From: Desulfosarcina sp.
Lineage (GTDB): Bacteria; Desulfobacterota; Desulfobacteria; Desulfobacterales; Desulfosarcinaceae
Reading direction: 5' to 3'
NCBI GenBank assembly: GCA_030642405.1
Contig: DAOWNV010000001.1
Coordinates: forward strand, 1 to 33,583
Length of the DNA: 33,583 nucleotides
Shown here one piece after another: positions 22,780-30,763 of this stretch; the stretch's first letter is position 1, and each line of letters begins with the position of its first letter. The notes under the pieces were generated by a model, which ran no database searches, had not been told where the DNA came from, and saw nothing but the letters and a program-made list of their open reading frames with translations. Both the position numbers and the translations under genes were made by a program.

Positions 22780-23061
22780 TTGGACGAACGGAAATATAGG
22801 TTGTTCAATTACCGAAAAAATAGAGATTGGGTTGAAAACCTAACGATTGTTATGCAGCTGGGCCTGACAATGGCCGGCTGTATTGTTTTTTGCCTTTTTG
22901 TAGGGTACGCGATAGATAAATGGTTGGGCCTTAAGGGGATATTCACAACAATTTTTATCCTTTTAGGCATTGTTGGTGGTGGTAATGTCTGCTACAGACA
23001 GATCCTTGAGGTGATAAACCCAAAAACCGAGGAAGATCCCAATGACCGCCGTACCACCTGA
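22780..23061 (+). CDS. AtpZ/AtpQ-family ATP synthase accessory protein (ATPase gene 1)
   Basis: Two TM helices with GLTMAG...VGYAIDKWLG...LLGIVGG. First gene of the atp cluster. Confidence 0.85.
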   Translation: MDERKYRLFNYRKNRDWVENLTIVMQLGLTMAGCIVFCLFVGYAIDKWLGLKGIFTTIFILLGIVGGGNVCYRQILEVINPKTEEDPNDRRTT

Positions 23062-23431
23062 TCGTGAAATTCAAAAACGCTACGGATCCTCCGCAATGGC
23101 GCTTGCCATCAGTATTGGCCTGGTTTTTCTGATTTTAGACTATAAAGCCATGTGCCGGGGCATCGTGATGGGTTCTCTTTTCAGCACAATTAACTTTGTG
23201 TTAATGGGGGAAACGATTCATAAGGCGGTTAAGCGCGAGCGGTCCAAAGCCTCCCTTTCCGCATTCGGGAACATTCTTTTCAGATATACAATCTTGGCCA
23301 TTCCACTCTATTTGGCAATCAAGCTGCCCCGATTCGATTTGTTCTCAACGATCGCAGGACTTTTGATGGTACAGTTCGTCATCCTGGCTGATCATATTTC
23401 CCATCGGTTCATTTACTCTTGGCGCAGGTGA
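23042..23431 (+). CDS. atpI: ATP synthase protein I (c-ring assembly factor)
   Basis: 129 aa with four hydrophobic helices and GSLFSTINF...FRY. Located directly before atpB. Confidence 0.8.
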   Translation: MTAVPPDREIQKRYGSSAMALAISIGLVFLILDYKAMCRGIVMGSLFSTINFVLMGETIHKAVKRERSKASLSAFGNILFRYTILAIPLYLAIKLPRFDLFSTIAGLLMVQFVILADHISHRFIYSWRR

Positions 23432-23447: not shown

Positions 23448-24122
23448 ATGGAAGAATTAGGTAAGGTATACCAACTTATTATTCCTCTGTCCGGCCACAA
23501 AATGGTCTTTAATCTTGATGCCATTGTTTATAGCTGGATCGTTATGCTTTTGATCCTGGTGTTCGGTGTTATGGCCACCCGCAAGCGGGGCGTCATACCC
23601 AATTACATGCAGGTTCTGGGCGAATTGTTCGTATCCAAGCTTTACGCACTGACCGAAGATGCACTGGGCGAAGATATGGCAAAAACTTACGCACCTCTGG
23701 TCTGCGCGCTGTTTATGTTTCTGGTGCTTTGCAACTGGATCGGTATCATCCCCCACCTGGAAGAACCAACCAAGGATCTCAACACGCCGTTGAGTCTTGG
23801 TGTCATGGGTTTTTTCATCGCCCACTATGTAGGGATTAAAACCAAAGGCTTCAAGGCCTATGCCAAAGAGTATTTCGAACCCTTTTTCATTATGGCTCCG
23901 CTGAACATAATAGGAGAGTTAGCCAAAATCGTGTCTATCTCTTTTCGTTTGTTCGGAAATATCATGGGAGGGGCAATCATTATTCTTGTTGTATCCTACC
24001 TTACTTACAGCATCTTGCTGCCACCATTTCTTAACGCATTTTTCGGTATTTTTGTCGGAGCGATTCAGGCTTTCGTTTTCACCATGTTAACCGTTGTTTA
24101 TATTTCCGTACAGGCGAAATAA
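23448..24122 (+). CDS. atpB: ATP synthase Fo subunit a
   Basis: PTKDLN, essential Arg in SISFRLFGN, and IQAFVFTML. Confidence 0.95.
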   Translation: MEELGKVYQLIIPLSGHKMVFNLDAIVYSWIVMLLILVFGVMATRKRGVIPNYMQVLGELFVSKLYALTEDALGEDMAKTYAPLVCALFMFLVLCNWIGIIPHLEEPTKDLNTPLSLGVMGFFIAHYVGIKTKGFKAYAKEYFEPFFIMAPLNIIGELAKIVSISFRLFGNIMGGAIIILVVSYLTYSILLPPFLNAFFGIFVGAIQAFVFTMLTVVYISVQAK

Positions 24123-24125
24123 TCC

Positions 24126-25100
24126 ATGGAACAAGACATTCAAACTTGGGTCAATTTGGCGGCATATCTAGGTGGTGGGCTTTCTATCGGATTCGGCGCA
24201 ATTGGTGCCGCCATCGGCGAAGGCTATACGGCCTCTCAGGCGAATTCGGCAATTTCACGAAACCCGGCCTTGGCAGGCGATGTATTTAAATCCATGCTGG
24301 TGGGTCAGGCCATCGCAGAGTCCGCTTCCGTCTTTGCATTGGTGGTCGCAATGATTCTGTTGTTTTCGAACATACCGGCCGACTCTTTTGTTACTGTCGC
24401 AGCCGTATTTGCAGCAGGACTATCCATGGGATTCGGTGCGATTGGATCCGGTGTTGGTGCTGGTTTTCCAGCAGGGGCGGCCTGTGTAGGCATGGTTCGA
24501 CAGCCGTCTGTGAGCGGTAAACTTACCACCAACATGCTCATTGGCTCTGCCGTTTGCCAAACCCCATCTATTTTCGCCCTTGTTGTTTCTTTCATTTTGA
24601 TTTTTTCTGATTTTGGAAGCTATCCTCTCTGGCCTACCTGGGGAGCGATCCTTGGTGCCGGATTGGCAGCTGGGTTAAGTGCCATCGGTTCAGGTATCGG
24701 CGGAGGTATCGTTGCCGGTGCCAGCTCTGAAGGAATAGCCCGCCAGCCGGCAGCAGTCACACCAGTTACCAATATTATGCTGTTGGGACAAGCAATTGCC
24801 CAAACTCCGGCGATACTGGGGCTCTTGGTGGCTTTTATTTTGATTTTCAAGGAATTCGGAGCCTCGGACACCATCGCCCCGGCCATGGCTTTGCTGGGTT
24901 CCGGGCTATGTATGGGGATTGGTGGAATTGGACCTGGAATCGGGGAAGGAATTGCTTCCAGCGGCGGTGTCAAGTGGATAGCCAGAAACGAAAAAGACAT
25001 AGGAACACTGACCCGTACGATGTTAGTCGGCATGGCCGTCGCAGAATCCACGGCCATCTATGCAATGGTAATCTCTTTGGTTTTAATTTTTGTCGTTTAA
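24126..25100 (+). CDS. atpE: ATP synthase Fo subunit c, four fused hairpin repeats (324 aa)
   Basis: Four ~81-aa repeats, each with a glycine-zipper helix and an R(N/Q)P or RNE loop. Ion-site positions are E65, Q145, Q226 and E307. Confidence 0.92.
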
Positions 25101-25183
25101 TAACAAGGCCCTGCAGATGGCCGACGTGCGCGGTGTGCATACCAGCAACCCCGCGAAAATATTACGTAACAGGAGGAAACATC

Positions 25184-25432
25184 ATGGCAATTGAAGGCGC
25201 AGACTTAATCAAGGCAGCTGCTTTTCTGGGTGCAGGTCTCTCCATGGGGTTGGGTGCTATCGGCCCTGGCGTTGGTGAAGGCATGGCCGCTGCTAAAGCT
25301 TGTGAAGCAATCGGCAGAAATCCAAAGGAAGCAGGCCTTCTGACACGTACGATGCTGGTCGGACAGGCCGTCTCGGAATCGACGGGTATTTATTCGCTGG
25401 TTGTAGCCCTGCTGTTGCTGTTTGTCGTATAA
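25184..25432 (+). CDS. atpE: ATP synthase Fo subunit c, single hairpin (82 aa), Na+-binding signature
   Basis: AGGAGG RBS then ATG 25184. Contains PGVGE32G, the RNP loop and V63-S-E65-S66-T67-G-I-Y70. Confidence 0.95.
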
Positions 25433-25520: not shown

Positions 25521-25970
25521 ATGGAGATCATTAGCGCTGTTGCATTGATCAGCATCAATGAGACTTTCTTTGTTCAATTGATATCATTCCTGGTTTTTAT
25601 ATTTATCCTCAACCGGGTTATGATTCGTCCGCTGATCAGCACCATGGAACAGCGAAAAGAGTACCTTGCCGACGTAAAAACAGATATTGAAAAAGCCGGG
25701 TTGGACCTTGATGATCTTAATCAAGAATTGGATCGCCGACGTCTTACCGTTCGTAAAGAGGCAGATACCGCTGTTCACGAATTAGAAGAAGAAGCGGATC
25801 ATCGAGCCGGCGAAGTGACTCAAGCAGCTCGGCTGGAAATTGTTGCGTTACGTCAGGAAACGGAAAAAAAAATTAATCAGCAACTCTCGGATGCGAGGGC
25901 TCAACTGACCGGGGAGGTGGCCGCTATTACTACAAAAATTATGGAAACCTTGCTGGGGCGGAGGCTGTAA
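25521..25970 (+). CDS. atpF: ATP synthase Fo subunit b'
   Basis: INETFFVQLISFLVFIFILNRVMIRP membrane anchor, charged coiled coil, and C-terminal LLGRRL. Confidence 0.88.
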   Translation: MEIISAVALISINETFFVQLISFLVFIFILNRVMIRPLISTMEQRKEYLADVKTDIEKAGLDLDDLNQELDRRRLTVRKEADTAVHELEEEADHRAGEVTQAARLEIVALRQETEKKINQQLSDARAQLTGEVAAITTKIMETLLGRRL

Positions 25971-25972
25971 TT

Positions 25973-26548
25973 ATGAAACGAATTGATATCATAAGAGATA
26001 GACCGCTTTTGATCCTTTTGGTATTGTTGCTGGTTATAATTCCGGGAACGGCAATTGCGTCCAGCCAGGAATGGCGCCCCACGTACGATCGAATCATGAT
26101 GTATGTCAACTTCGCCATTATCGCCGCTGTAATTTTTAAATATGCCCGCGATCCGTTCAAAGCCTTTCTCAAACAGCAAAAAGCAGATGTGGTTGACGAA
26201 ATTGATATGCTGAAGACGGAGAAAAAACGGATTGCTGATGAAATAGAAGCAGCTCGGACACGGTCTACGGATAATCAGCAACGGCTAGAAAAAATGAAAG
26301 CTCGCCTGATTGCCCAGGGGAAGACCAAAAAACAGCAGCTCATTGATCAAGCCCAGCGACAAAGCGTTATCATGATCGAAGAAAGCCGAAAAAAAATGGT
26401 AAATCGAATTCGGCAGGCAAAACACCAACTCAAGTTGGAGCTTGCGGACTTGGCCTTTGAAGAGGCCAAGCAAAAATTGCCCTTGGCGATTACGGAGGAA
26501 GACAATAAGCGATTCCTGGACCTTTATATGAAAAGTGCTCATAAATAA
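25973..26548 (+). CDS. atpF: ATP synthase Fo subunit b
   Basis: N-terminal hydrophobic extension, VNFAII..P anchor, coiled coil, and a C-terminal ITEEDNKRFLDLY helix. Confidence 0.85.
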   Translation: MKRIDIIRDRPLLILLVLLLVIIPGTAIASSQEWRPTYDRIMMYVNFAIIAAVIFKYARDPFKAFLKQQKADVVDEIDMLKTEKKRIADEIEAARTRSTDNQQRLEKMKARLIAQGKTKKQQLIDQAQRQSVIMIEESRKKMVNRIRQAKHQLKLELADLAFEEAKQKLPLAITEEDNKRFLDLYMKSAHK

Positions 26549-26586: not shown

Positions 26587-29076
26587 TTAAGCCTTATGAT
26601 CACTTAATAGCGTTGTAATCATAGAGCTGTCTTCGGTTACAGCCGCCTGTCGGTTGGATGAGCTGTCCGGCTGAGGAATCGTGTTCCATTGAGACGTATA
26701 CATCACTCGATAGGCAATCTGGAACATGGCTTCCAAAAGGGAAAAGGCTGAGATTTGTCGGCCGGCGGAGGTGAGAGTTAAGAGCATACTGATTTTTTCA
26801 GCTTTACTCATCTTCATCCGATTCAAATTACGCAGAAAAGCCACCATTTTTGGAGCAAGGTGACTATGCTGCTCGGATAAACCTTCAGAAGATTCCCACT
26901 TGGCTATTTGTTTTTGAATCTCCTCACTGGAAGCCTCAATTAAGAAGGCTTTATTTTTCTCATTTTTGACAAGCGGAGAAACGGAAACATGCCTTCGGAT
27001 GGCCCTTTCGAGGCATTTCTGTTCCCGCCTCAATTCTTTTTCAAATTCCGGGACCATCGCATCGGGCACAATCAGTGTTAACTGATTTAATTCATCTGAA
27101 AAAACAGCCAGCCCTTTTTTCATATCCGCCAGTGCCGCCGACCAGAATTTTTCACTCATAGCCTTTACGGTTTTTTCATCCGGGGCGGCTTTAGAACGGC
27201 TCTGTTTGATCATCCTTAAAGCAACGGGAAAGGATCGCGAAGCACGCACAAACAGATTTTTCCCGGTGGTCACCCGAAAAATATTAGCAATCACTGCATA
27301 CCAGTCCTGGAAATAATGCACATCGGACAGGTTTGTAAAGCAGGATGCAAGGATTTCATTTTTCAATAAATGGAGAGGCGTCGCATATAGAGGTGTTCCT
27401 CCTAGAATGGGCTGTTCAATCCTGCCGTCTTTTGCCGAATCCAAGGAAACTGCCGTTTCCACATCGATGACACCGATGGAAAAGGCGGCACGATCATTTA
27501 AAAATCCTGGATAATGATCCGGATTGGCATCCATGAATAAATTATCCGGTTTCAAATCTCTCAGTGCAATTTTTCTTTCTTTAAGCCGGCAAAGCAATTG
27601 AAGCATGTTTGATGAGACATTTTCGATTTGGTGCCGGTATTGAACGAAAACCTTTGTCGCCAACTGAGATTTCAACAATTGAAGCAGATCATTAACGATC
27701 TGTTTGTTGGATTCGAAAATACGGGTAAAATCGTCTTCAATCCGAATGATCAGATCCTCTCCAATTTCTTTTTCAGCCCTGTCGAGTGGTTCTCCTGCAA
27801 TCCGTGAAAGGAACCAGTTTTTAATCTGGAATGTGTGGATATTCACCTTTTTATTAGAGGCATGGATAGTTCGTTTTACTTCGGTTTCACAAAGCCGGTA
27901 AAGAGTTTGAAGGTTGTTAAAGACCGTAAGGGACCCCAACCCGTACCGGGTTGTGAAAGCCTCCTGGTCCCAGGCCACATCCGGTACCTCACGAATTTCG
28001 TCACCGATTTTATTCTTGAACGCATGTATTTCGTCGATGACCCGTGCTAAAAAAATATTGTTGGTTAATTCCATAAAAAAGGCAAACCGCCCACCGATTT
28101 TCAGGTACTCTTGATAATCCGGTTTTTCTTCGACTAAGCGAATGTATTGCTTCTCCAGTTGCGCTTGAGTAAGACTTGACGCGTAGGGTAATGTTGTAAC
28201 TTTTTTAAGCACCACGGTTATCATCGGAACTATGCATGCGACAGGAGAAAGCTGGGATGAGATCTTTCCCTCCTTACGAATCGCTTTCACATAGGTGCCC
28301 ATATCGGTTACCGGAACCGGAGGTACCTTAATAACCATATGGGTGTCGTATATGGCGTAGAAGCACTTGCTTTTGCTTCCGGTATCCTCCCCTAAAGGGC
28401 CAATGGACATACGACGGGTCAACCATTCCCGGCCACTCATGACGCTCAACTCAAAAATTTTCATTTTCCGGGAGGATGCATGGTCGGTCATCTGATAACG
28501 GGCAGGAGCATCCTTCCCCAATCCGTTTTGAACCTTGAACAGTTCGAGAAAAAACAGTGCGATATCCCGTAAATCTGAATTCACCAGGATCTCGTCCTGT
28601 TTATGGTTCGCCTCACCTACAGGTCCTATATGTGCTTTCTCTTCCTTTTTTGTAAAACCTATTGTCTCTATCCACCGAAAAAAGACCTGAAATAGTTTGA
28701 ACAGCAAAGAAATAACGGCCAGAATAGCGAAAAAAAACAAAATGCGGCTATCAAACATCTTTTTTCCGACTATATCCCAACCAGTCCTTTTTTTTATGAC
28801 GCGATCTTTCCATTGTTCAACAATTTGAGTCAGCGATATCTGCTTTTCAACCGCGATCGAGCCGACGGAAGCAACATCATTTTTCATAAACATTCCTGAT
28901 TGCCCATCGGACTCATAAAAAATGAACTGATCGGATTTGCTGACATGATCGGCGATCACCGGTTCTCCGCTTTTAATATAAATGATTTGCTTTTCCGCTG
29001 TCACATCAACCTTCATGAAAGAGACAACCGCTGTGCAGCATGCTGAAAGAGCAATAATAAAAATCCATTTTTTCAT
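26587..29076 (-). CDS. membrane-anchored atypical Ser/Thr protein kinase-like protein (829 aa)
   Basis: N-terminal signal/anchor and a second TM helix. Kinase motifs MVIK, FFMEL, LRDLKPDN, IDVE, GGTPLYATP and QDWYA. Confidence 0.78.
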   Translation of the reverse strand: MKKWIFIIALSACCTAVVSFMKVDVTAEKQIIYIKSGEPVIADHVSKSDQFIFYESDGQSGMFMKNDVASVGSIAVEKQISLTQIVEQWKDRVIKKRTGWDIVGKKMFDSRILFFFAILAVISLLFKLFQVFFRWIETIGFTKKEEKAHIGPVGEANHKQDEILVNSDLRDIALFFLELFKVQNGLGKDAPARYQMTDHASSRKMKIFELSVMSGREWLTRRMSIGPLGEDTGSKSKCFYAIYDTHMVIKVPPVPVTDMGTYVKAIRKEGKISSQLSPVACIVPMITVVLKKVTTLPYASSLTQAQLEKQYIRLVEEKPDYQEYLKIGGRFAFFMELTNNIFLARVIDEIHAFKNKIGDEIREVPDVAWDQEAFTTRYGLGSLTVFNNLQTLYRLCETEVKRTIHASNKKVNIHTFQIKNWFLSRIAGEPLDRAEKEIGEDLIIRIEDDFTRIFESNKQIVNDLLQLLKSQLATKVFVQYRHQIENVSSNMLQLLCRLKERKIALRDLKPDNLFMDANPDHYPGFLNDRAAFSIGVIDVETAVSLDSAKDGRIEQPILGGTPLYATPLHLLKNEILASCFTNLSDVHYFQDWYAVIANIFRVTTGKNLFVRASRSFPVALRMIKQSRSKAAPDEKTVKAMSEKFWSAALADMKKGLAVFSDELNQLTLIVPDAMVPEFEKELRREQKCLERAIRRHVSVSPLVKNEKNKAFLIEASSEEIQKQIAKWESSEGLSEQHSHLAPKMVAFLRNLNRMKMSKAEKISMLLTLTSAGRQISAFSLLEAMFQIAYRVMYTSQWNTIPQPDSSSNRQAAVTEDSSMITTLLSDHKA

Positions 29077-29164
29077 TGACTCACTTCTATCTCGACCTGT
29101 TTTATATAGCGTCTGCCGTTGGGTGATGCCTACTAAGGATTGTGGATTTAATTAATTACCAATC

Positions 29165-29893
29165 CTAATCCATTGTGAACTGAAGAATCATCCCACAAAT
29201 TTCTATTTTGTCCATATCCTTCAGCCGTACCGGCATTCGGACTGCTTTCCCGTTCACTTTTGGTTTCACCCAACCCCTACCGCTATTGACATAGTAGTGC
29301 TGAGGCGTTTTGCTGATGGTGACGGCGGGATCTCCTGATAGGAAAGAAAAAAAACCTTTAACAATAATATCGCATCGTTTTGTCCTGCCGATGGTCACTA
29401 AGCTTTGGGTCAGTTTGATTTTTCCGTTTCCACCTGCCAAAAAAACCACATGGGCCTGTGGTTCGGCGATCGTCGGCACGTCTTCACTTTCAGCCAACAT
29501 CTTCCTATAAAGCTCAGACTCCATGAACATGGTATGTTTCGGTCCCGGATCACCGGGCATGGCTGAAGTCTTCAACCCTCCCCTGCCAAATGGGTCAGCT
29601 CTTCCCCGATCTAAAAAAACAAGGACGTGATTACCGATGGTTATGACGTCCCCGTTTTTTAAAACAGCTTTTTTAATCGGTGTGCCATTTACGAATGTGC
29701 CGTTTTTGCTTCCCGTATCTTTTAAATGGTATCTGTTGCCCTCTTTTTTTATGACAGCGTGGTTCTCGGAAACGGCATAGTTGTCGATTACCAGATTATG
29801 ACGGCTGTTTCTCCCTATGGAAACCGTTTCTATCTGATCCAGGGATAATTCCTTAATCCTGCGATCCTTGAATTTTACAAGCAATCTAACCAT
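29165..29893 (-). CDS. tandem FHA-domain protein
   Basis: FHA1 has IGR, VSENHA and SKNGTFVNG. A second, degenerate FHA has TIGR...KVNG...LKDMDKIEI. Confidence 0.9.
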   Translation of the reverse strand: MVRLLVKFKDRRIKELSLDQIETVSIGRNSRHNLVIDNYAVSENHAVIKKEGNRYHLKDTGSKNGTFVNGTPIKKAVLKNGDVITIGNHVLVFLDRGRADPFGRGGLKTSAMPGDPGPKHTMFMESELYRKMLAESEDVPTIAEPQAHVVFLAGGNGKIKLTQSLVTIGRTKRCDIIVKGFFSFLSGDPAVTISKTPQHYYVNSGRGWVKPKVNGKAVRMPVRLKDMDKIEICGMILQFTMD

Positions 29894-29911
29894 CTATCCG
29901 CCGTCTTGCCC

Positions 29912-30763
29912 CTAAGTTGAGCGTTTTCCACCAAGACATGATCCGATCCATATTGGAAGGGCTAACAACCGACCCAGCAGCCCTTTCGTTGGTTTTACGC
30001 CTTCAGAAAGAATTTTAACCACAATCACGGTTACGTTATCCTCACCGCCCCTTTCGATGGCCAAATCCGTAAGGTTCTTGCAGGCAGTTTCAGCATCGCT
30101 TTTGACCACCAAAGCCCCGACTTCTTCTTTGGTAACCTTTCCGCTAAGCCCGTCACTGCACAAGACGATGATATCGTCTTTGAAACAGGGCGTTTTCACA
30201 TGGTCGATGCGCAGGTGCTGATGAATCCCAACGGCTCTGGTAAGAATATGGGCCATTTTGCTTGGAGAAAACCGGCCTTCCATTGATTTCGGAATCTTTT
30301 TTCGTTCGTGGAGTAATGTATGTGGTGTATAAAGTGTTTCGATTTCACCGTTTCTCAACAAATAGATGGGACTGTCTCCCACATTGGCTGTGATAATGAA
30401 ATTATCGGAAAGGAAAAGTGCTGAGACCGTAGTCCCCATCCCCCGGCAAGATTCATCTTTAACGGAAAGTGTATAAATTTTCTTATTCGCCAGGTGGATA
30501 CCCTTAAGAAGGTGGTTGATATCCTCTGCTCGGGAATCTTCAGCTTTGGATGTGTCGGGTTTTAAGGCTGGGCTGCACGTAGCTTCCATACATGTACCCA
30601 TGGTTTTTGTAGCAAGACGACTGGCCACGGCACCACCGCGATGACCACCCATACCGTCCGCCACAACGAACAATCCGATTGATTCGTTGATAAGAAAACT
30701 GTCTTCATTTGCTTTGCGCACTTTTCCGATATCACTGTAACCTGCGGATTGAACTCTTATCAT
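29912..30763 (-). CDS. PP2C-family (Stp1/PrpC) Ser/Thr protein phosphatase
   Basis: GKVRKANED, VADGMGGH, GMGTT, NVGDS, LTRAVG, CSDGL and GGEDNVT. Confidence 0.93.
   Translation of the reverse strand: MIRVQSAGYSDIGKVRKANEDSFLINESIGLFVVADGMGGHRGGAVASRLATKTMGTCMEATCSPALKPDTSKAEDSRAEDINHLLKGIHLANKKIYTLSVKDESCRGMGTTVSALFLSDNFIITANVGDSPIYLLRNGEIETLYTPHTLLHERKKIPKSMEGRFSPSKMAHILTRAVGIHQHLRIDHVKTPCFKDDIIVLCSDGLSGKVTKEEVGALVVKSDAETACKNLTDLAIERGGEDNVTVIVVKILSEGVKPTKGLLGRLLALPIWIGSCLGGKRST

Follow-up and report, generated by a model that had tools for sequence, protein, structure and literature searches.

Introduction

Hybrid F-type rotors with two-hairpin c subunits are already known (accessible parts of PMC7911925 and PMC9171764), and the Acetobacterium woodii rotor, in which one ion site is missing, was the only one with a solved structure among our hits. 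The available text of both papers proposes a low ion/ATP ratio as an adaptation to low phosphorylation potential, and that of PMC9171764 reports ATP synthesis by enzymes with site-depleted rotors at 87-90 mV. The ion site of a c ring is built from Q/E32 and E65 of one hairpin together with V63(O), S66, T67 and Y70 of its neighbour, which in fused c subunits is the preceding hairpin (PMC2359735, in part; ProAD supplement, PMC11738941). The two-carboxylate Na+ motif was demonstrated in the c subunit of Fusobacterium nucleatum, whose extra proton is not translocated according to the accessible sections (PMC3692424). Multi-hairpin c subunits are handled generically in the available part of ProAD, with logos for one- and two-hairpin forms only (PMC11738941). 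Two to four atpE copies have been reported in Desulfatiglandales, hairpin detail not being given in the accessible part of the paper (PMC13343851), and a 2026 preprint (10.64898/2026.10.01.756066) mentions "several multi-hairpin structures", its available text containing no match for "Desulfo".

In marine sulfate reducers and other anaerobes, the energy floor is set by the ion/ATP ratio. No description of three- to six-hairpin F-type c subunits or of the Fo-only operon described below was found in the searchable literature, the scope of which did not include a 2015 study by Brandt and Müller that reportedly surveyed operons with several c genes and could list carrier organisms. We analysed a 33,583-nt stretch of DNA from Desulfosarcina sp. 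(NCBI GenBank assembly GCA_030642405.1, contig DAOWNV010000001.1, positions 1 to 33,583; the window), in which a sequence-only reading had pointed out a four-hairpin F-type c subunit with two inactivated inner sites.

Gene organization of the Fo module

Open reading frames and Pfam profiles revealed a forward-strand module in the order atpQ (gene 1)-atpI-atpB-atpE1-atpE2-atpF'-atpF. It contained neither a delta nor an F1 gene and was flanked by unrelated opposite-strand genes. Its features are as follows.

22780..23061 (+): atpQ, gene-1 family membrane protein (PF09527, E 1.9e-14), first module gene at the loci examined
23042..23431 (+): atpI, c-ring assembly helper family (PF03899, E 5e-10)
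23448..24122 (+): atpB, subunit a (PF00119), with the R-L-F-G-N arginine conserved; member of a module-specific clade
24126..25100 (+): atpE1, four-hairpin c subunit of 324 aa, starting 3 nt past the atpB stop and lacking a strong Shine-Dalgarno sequence
24126..24368 (+): hairpin 1 of atpE1, E32/E65 retained, own donors degenerate (S66, A67, F70); complete Na+ site predicted with a preceding 82-aa c
24369..24611 (+): hairpin 2 of atpE1, A112/Q145-T-P..F150, without carboxylate; dead site
24612..24854 (+): hairpin 3 of atpE1, G193/Q226-T-P..L231, without carboxylate; T67/Y70 donors for the hairpin 4 site missing
24855..25097 (+): hairpin 4 of atpE1, E274/E307 retained in a degenerate site; S308-T309..Y312 a full donor set for a following 82-aa c
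25171..25176 (+): strong Shine-Dalgarno sequence of atpE2
25184..25432 (+): atpE2, 82-aa single-hairpin c with the full two-carboxylate Na+ motif (E32, E65-S66-T67..Y70)
25521..25970 (+): atpF', subunit b' (PF00430), with a C-terminal motif common to housekeeping b'
25973..26548 (+): atpF, subunit b (PF00430), the final module gene, followed by neither delta nor F1 genes

The start codon of atpQ is uncertain, and the protein is 88 aa long in many relatives. Gene order was fixed across the loci examined. The nearest named relatives were Desulfosarcina, with 92% identity to D. alkanivorans. A promoter and terminator scan gave a result at chance level.

The reverse strand of the window encodes, at positions 26587-30763, an 829-aa product with some likeness to kinases (weak match, E 4e-4), along with an FHA protein and a PP2C phosphatase; this cluster adjoins the Fo module in several Desulfosarcina loci. 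Some Desulfosarcina loci (L004:10559-12966 and L006:10524-12837) carry a cytidylate-kinase-like gene (PF13189) and a CitMHS/Na+-sulfate-symporter-family transporter on the same strand, 3' of the module. The PF13189 gene and CitMHS-type transporter of some Desulfosarcina are both missing from the window.

Sequence, fold and selection of the four-hairpin subunit

The reading frame at 24126-25100 (+) encodes a 324-aa protein with four PF00137 stretches (E 8e-58). Since its PF00137 repeats exceed the Pfam cut-off and its operon includes F-type a and b, atpE1 was identified as an F-type subunit c and not an A/V-type subunit K: F0F1 c profiles scored 213 bits vs 94 for K profiles, and the neighbours are F-type a, b' and b. 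The residues named in the sequence-only reading were all present (E32/E65-S66-A67..F70; A112/Q145-T146-P147; G193/Q226-T227-P228; E274/E307-S308-T309..Y312), as were the loops R-N-P, R-Q-P, R-Q-P and R-N-E in hairpins 1-4.

An AlphaFold2 model based on a 70-row alignment showed eight long helices (pLDDT 94.4, pTM 0.90) and was used instead of single-sequence folding, which performed poorly (pLDDT 54). Among solved structures, the best match in both sequence and fold was A. woodii c1 (PDB 4BEM chain J; E 6e-22, rmsd 1.5 A over 165 columns), which bears out the kinship proposed earlier. Against the two closest loci, dN was 0.04-0.05 and dS 1.6-1.8, the latter near saturation, and the inner hairpins behaved like the rest in dN/dS. 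With dN this far below dS, the earlier preference for selection over decay holds, and atpE1 is a real, conserved gene under purifying selection, a product of neither chance nor decay.

Ion-site composition

A Na+ site was defined as Q/E32 and E65 plus S/T66, S/T/Q67 and Y70 of the preceding hairpin. The 82-aa c carries these residues, and hairpin 1 would form such a site with a presumed preceding 82-aa c; the hairpin 3/hairpin 4 site, where E274/E307 face T227-P228..L231, does not fit the rule. Because the glutamates of hairpin 4 find no T67/Y70 donors in hairpin 3, only hairpin 1 is predicted to hold a complete Na+ site. By its residues, the insert is thus predicted to bring a single complete Na+ site, with two of its positions dead and one degenerate; by the ProAD rule, the hairpin 3/4 site would be H+-type or of low affinity. 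Since the hairpin 4 site deviates from the Na+ rule in addition to the two dead ones, the predicted loss is two to three sites and not exactly the two counted earlier.

The hairpin 4 glutamates occurred together with T-P-x-x-L/C in hairpin 3 in 60 of the 64 close four-hairpin homologues (59 T-P-L, 1 T-P-C). Four inner sites in loci drawn from genomes had E65 without a Y70 donor, three of them of the window type. A quick hairpin tree of 78 columns, for which the careful search is unfinished, nested window hairpin 3 among T-T-x-x-Y forms and paired window hairpin 4 with the dead N/Q terminal hairpins in a sister relationship (SH-aLRT 99). Stepwise loss of the last site, with the window form midway, tentatively fits this tree.

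The retention of the hairpin 4 glutamates in those 60 homologues, and their H+-binding class under the ProAD rule, would also suit a functional H+ site at E274/E307, through which the ring would co-transport H+ and Na+ or tune its pH dependence. We consider such a site very unlikely; the sister relationship in the quick tree fits a half-dismantled site too, and the extra proton of F. nucleatum c is not translocated (accessible part of PMC3692424).

Hairpin number and residue patterns among relatives

The best 120 of 2192 hits, ranked by likeness to the query, comprised 64 four-, 39 five- and 17 six-hairpin proteins. Within this set, position 65 read E/Q/Q/E in 63 of the 64 four-hairpin proteins, and only the first E was kept in 38 of 39 five-hairpin and 13 of 17 six-hairpin proteins (one of the 17 partial). 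Because the hits are ranked by likeness to the query, loci were drawn from genomes as well, giving 32 distinct loci after removal of two duplicates and 30 intact loci after two broken genes (L015, L020) were dropped. The intact loci encode 5 three-, 22 four- and 3 five-hairpin proteins, and the four-hairpin proteins read E/Q/Q/E (11), E/Q/Q/Q (7), E/Q/E/E (3) or E/Q/E/Q (1) at position 65. The E/Q/Q/E pattern, whose conservation the sequence-only reading had proposed to test, was therefore near-universal among the four-hairpin proteins in the best 120 hits but present in only half of the genome-drawn ones, and is one state of several rather than the family pattern.

A multi-hairpin frame was found in 25 of 30 sampled relatives among the matches listed (16/18 in the genus, 9/12 others in the order); since the remaining five had no multi-hairpin gene among those matches, the module is dispensable. 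The two broken genes (L015:3425-4401 in G010 and L020:3011-4672 in G026) are interrupted after about hairpin 3, by sequencing error or as pseudogenes. One genome (G021; L017, L018) carries two module copies, with four- and five-hairpin inserts.

Among representatives at 50% identity there were also forms with two or three hairpins, as well as a remote set of four-hairpin proteins that differ in their residue pattern (P0204, P0211-P0276; about 318 aa, 25-34% identity, position 65 often E/Q/E/D). P0137 (434 aa) has five hairpins with E65 in all and I/L at position 32, and P0121-P0126, P0155 and P0187 are rotors of 6-15 hairpins in a single chain; one of these carries the label Nanoarchaeota, and in some the glutamate is missing from at least one hairpin. 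A search for longer forms (568-2000 aa) returned six proteins, all distant and archaeal/K-like with 6-13 repeats, which argues weakly against F-type forms above six hairpins.

Fixed ends and probable insertion into a ring with the 82-aa c subunit

The two ends were invariant in the 30 intact loci drawn from genomes: E65 is present and Y70 absent in every first hairpin, and every last hairpin carries S/T66-T67-Y70, its own E65 being lost in 12 of them. At the inner interfaces of these loci, 18 of 22 E65 residues came after a hairpin with Y70, and in 65 of 66 cases both were absent, while E65 and Y70 of the same hairpin showed no association (21/31 vs 28/38). The relatives are not independent, so p-values for this ligand co-variation overstate it. 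The rule was weaker in the 50 usable of 73 more distant representatives (8/30 and 84/85). Donors on a terminal hairpin are useful only beside another c subunit and are therefore the best sequence evidence for a ring shared with the 82-aa c. Fixed ends, as in A. woodii c1, argue for insertion among single c subunits, so the ring insertion envisaged earlier gains support and appears probable.

End residues that make sense only with ring neighbours, the fixed gene order and dN far below dS all speak against atpE1 acting outside any working rotor, as a vestige or in a separate membrane function. The broken gene in 2 of 32 loci points the other way, and we regard this option as highly improbable.

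In a complex model, the 82-aa c packed onto hairpin 4 (residues 249-324) through an interface that includes positions 32 and 65 of the 82-aa c; no confident contact was listed at hairpin 1. The score was 0.76 vs 0.08 for the best of three controls, contacts agreed by at least 97% between runs, and partner pLDDT was at least 77. Of solved pairs, 116 of 157 attain the mark applied to such models, as do 2 of 215 mismatched ones, and likeness to solved c-rings may explain the pass.

In 26 of 30 loci, no more than 4 nt separate the atpE1 start from the atpB stop; the Shine-Dalgarno sequence was stronger at atpE2 in all 30 (median -10.3 vs -3.3 kcal/mol for atpE1). An atpB-coupled start with a weak ribosome site at atpE1, against a strong site at atpE2, suggests that insert and subunit a are made in roughly equal number and single c subunits in large excess.

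The rings of cyanobacteria and chloroplasts are c14-c15, and those of Ilyobacter tartaricus, F. nucleatum and A. woodii have 11 hairpins. No gap was needed to align the atpE1 hairpins with the c chains of cyanobacteria and chloroplasts, whereas alignment with the three Na+-type chains (I. tartaricus, F. nucleatum, A. woodii) required a gap of one residue. The gapless fit to c14-c15-type chains makes a ring larger than 11 hairpins plausible, and the 11-hairpin ring used for illustration in the sequence-only reading found no support. By arithmetic, a ring of 11 hairpins with one insert would move 2.7-3.0 ions per ATP and have a gap of 98-131 degrees; for a ring of 15, the values would be 4.0-4.3 ions per ATP and 72-96 degrees.

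Fo and F1 gene sets in carriers

The genome that contains the window (86.7% complete) has a second atpI-B-E set on contig C299, whose c reads Q32/E65-S-L-C..Y; lacking T67, it is H+-type by the published rule. Neither this separate a/c pair nor the absence of delta and F1 genes from the module figured in the sequence-only reading. Housekeeping b'-b-delta-alpha lie on contig C187, the end of which cuts alpha at 79 aa. The F1 operon being interrupted in this way, head counts rest on relatives. PF00006 matches in this genome were rejected as alpha or beta, as they look like Rho.

Subunit-a genes outnumbered beta genes in 23 of 25 carriers, the exceptions being G012 and G013 (both drafts), and three non-carriers (96-98% completeness) had one a and one beta each; G005 and G017 were uninformative. 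Five one- or two-contig congeners each had 3 a, 2 beta, 2 gamma and 1 delta over the cut-off. In G018, the second F1 belongs to a self-contained N-ATPase with its own a/c, and the sets in this genome are housekeeping Q-I-a-c, housekeeping b'-b-delta-alpha-gamma-beta-epsilon, the N-ATPase and the multi-hairpin-c module. In G012 (94% complete draft), the module a was the sole subunit a found, with one beta.

F1 genes lay 3' of the module in only 2 of 34 annotated loci, of which two repeat another locus and several end less than 1.5 kb past b. In G044 (one contig) and G060, the module runs on into delta-alpha-gamma-beta-epsilon, with the only beta found per genome; in G044, there is a single b'/b pair, and an H+-type a/c lies apart from the module. 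This Fo lineage is therefore co-encoded with an ordinary F1 in some genomes. Both arrangements have two Fo sets per ordinary head.

Phylogenetic analysis placed the module a subunits in one clade (32 rows, support 100/98) apart from housekeeping and N-ATPase a, in a tree that is subject to long-branch effects and includes a single N-ATPase row. The C-termini of b and b' bind delta and alpha, and the C-terminal motifs of the module b and b' are conserved and resemble those of the housekeeping pair. Head sharing with the housekeeping F1 is likely, judging from gene content and these motifs. A lysine seven residues before the subunit-a arginine, taken as a marker of Na+ specificity, was rejected as diagnostic, as it also occurs in chloroplast and mycobacterial a.

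Instead of setting the ion ratio, the insert might serve mainly in structure or regulation, as a pre-curved seed for ring size or for assembly with subunit a, or as a parking arc that limits Na+ leak through an F1-free Fo, the change in ratio being a side effect. Translational coupling of atpE1 to atpB agrees with this, and the free variation of inner-hairpin number and live sites among close relatives is more what one would expect of a spacer than of a tuned gear; an Fo waiting for a shared head would also be expected to gain from a leak brake. The insert is kept even where F1 is in the same operon (G044, G060), however, and the hairpin 1 carboxylate is kept in 30 of 30 loci, and we find such a role quite unlikely.

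Proposed mechanism

On balance, we lean towards a rotor in which the four-hairpin c of the Fo-only operon is likely inserted, in about one copy, into a Na+ ring made mostly of the 82-aa c, with this Fo likely mounted on the housekeeping F1 as a second motor that spends fewer ions per ATP. The proposal draws on gene content, residue pattern, conservation and the excess of Fo over F1 sets in relatives. The atpE1 protein would fold as an arc of four hairpins. An 82-aa c at its N-terminal side would complete the Na+ site of hairpin 1, and S308/T309/Y312 of hairpin 4 would complete the site of an 82-aa c on the other side. The two inner interfaces would be ion-free and the hairpin 3/4 interface weakened, possibly H+-preferring, such that each insert copy would take two to three sites from an N-hairpin ring. 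The delta-alpha3-beta3-gamma-epsilon head, whose genes lie elsewhere, would be bound by the module a and b'/b where otherwise the H+-type housekeeping a/c would serve. The lower Na+/ATP ratio would make ATP cheaper in ions at low phosphorylation potential, as has been proposed for A. woodii c1, and the enzyme would probably be reversible.

A lower ion/ATP ratio thermodynamically favours pumping as readily as synthesis, and the same hybrid ring with a borrowed F1 could instead work in ATP-driven Na+ export with a V-ATPase-like low gearing. By arithmetic, the one-site five- and six-hairpin relatives would leave 120-196 degrees of an 11-15-hairpin ring without an ion site (144-196 degrees for the six-hairpin forms), a long arc that is hard to reconcile with ATP synthesis under load and that an F1-driven rotor would cross more easily. 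Such one-site forms are common (38/39 five- and 13/17 six-hairpin proteins in the best 120 of 2192 hits), and an H+-type Fo is on hand for synthesis. Several carriers, however, also encode an N-ATPase, presumed to be a Na+ pump, the module of G044 belongs to the only complete F1Fo operon found there, and enzymes with site-depleted rotors do synthesise ATP at 87-90 mV (available text of PMC9171764). We therefore view export as the main task as unlikely, though not far-fetched, and retain synthesis by a second, lower-geared motor as the preferred reading.

Possible, although we would stop short of calling it probable, is a wider arrangement in which many Desulfobacterota run one F1 head on interchangeable H+ and Na+ motors, the Na+ rotor being geared by a single three- to six-hairpin insert with up to five consecutive ion-free positions. 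The window form would then stand midway, with its last site altered in tuning, possibly towards H+.

Expression and physiological context

RNA-library contigs of relatives (mostly <90% alike) span the multi-hairpin gene in three of four runs, DNA origin being possible. One example is a 592-nt contig over hairpins 1-3 in run X2, a metatranscriptome, which may likewise be DNA. Word shares in these runs were small (0.06-0.09) and the contigs show neither level nor strand, so that they are weak signs of expression. Proteomics of Desulfobacteraceae found the Na+-pumping Rnf2 to be abundant, ATP synthase being mentioned once in the accessible text (PMC11887813), and the genome of the window has two RnfD genes over the cut-off. 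Cultured carriers are Desulfosarcina alkanivorans and D. variabilis.

The natural series lacking one to five adjacent sites would allow tests of an old question about mechanism, namely how large a torque-free arc a rotary motor can cross, and whether a lower ratio aids synthesis or pumping. If this Fo does borrow the housekeeping F1, coupling ion and gear ratio would be switchable by swapping the membrane half, and metabolic models assuming one H+ ATP synthase for carriers would need revision.

Comparison with known systems

The closest described system is the F1Fo of A. woodii (and Clostridium aceticum) with its c1 subunit (PDB 4BEM). As in the window, a multi-hairpin c gene precedes a single-hairpin Na+ c gene in one F-type operon, and the ends of c1 are the same (E-T-S-G-I-F, then Q-T-T-G-I-Y), the first hairpin carrying E without T67/Y70 and the terminal hairpin the donor set. 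The window protein differs in having four hairpins (3-6 in the family) where the large subunit of A. woodii has two and one site, in having two adjacent dead sites and one degenerate site vs one dead site, and in having E rather than Q at position 32. Unlike the A. woodii operon, which includes F1, that of the window lacks it, encodes a b'/b heterodimer and is found in a genome that also has an H+-type Fo.

The F. nucleatum c ring (PDB 3ZK1; PMC3692424, in part) has E32, E65, S66, T67 and Y70 as in the 82-aa c, but it is a homo-oligomeric c11 in a complete enzyme, and its helix 1 register differs by one residue. N-ATPases (Dibrova et al. 2010, as summarised in ProAD, PMC11738941) resemble the module in being accessory, Na+-type and located beside a housekeeping F-ATPase. 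Their operon (beta-epsilon-X-X-a-c-(b-delta)-alpha-gamma), with its own beta, epsilon, alpha and gamma and a b-delta fusion, is not matched by the module, which has neither and whose a forms a separate clade; both occur in one genome (G018). Archaeal A-type K subunits (Methanocaldococcus jannaschii x3, Methanopyrus kandleri x13; PMC2359735) show tandem hairpin multiplication with loss of some sites, as in the window, but they belong to A/V-type operons, a single-hairpin partner not being described in the accessible part of that paper, whereas the context in the window is F-type a, b' and b. The atpE1 system is thus a variant of the hybrid rotor and not a new kind of machine, and what stands out in it most is that consecutive dead sites form a graded series and that two motors appear to share one head.
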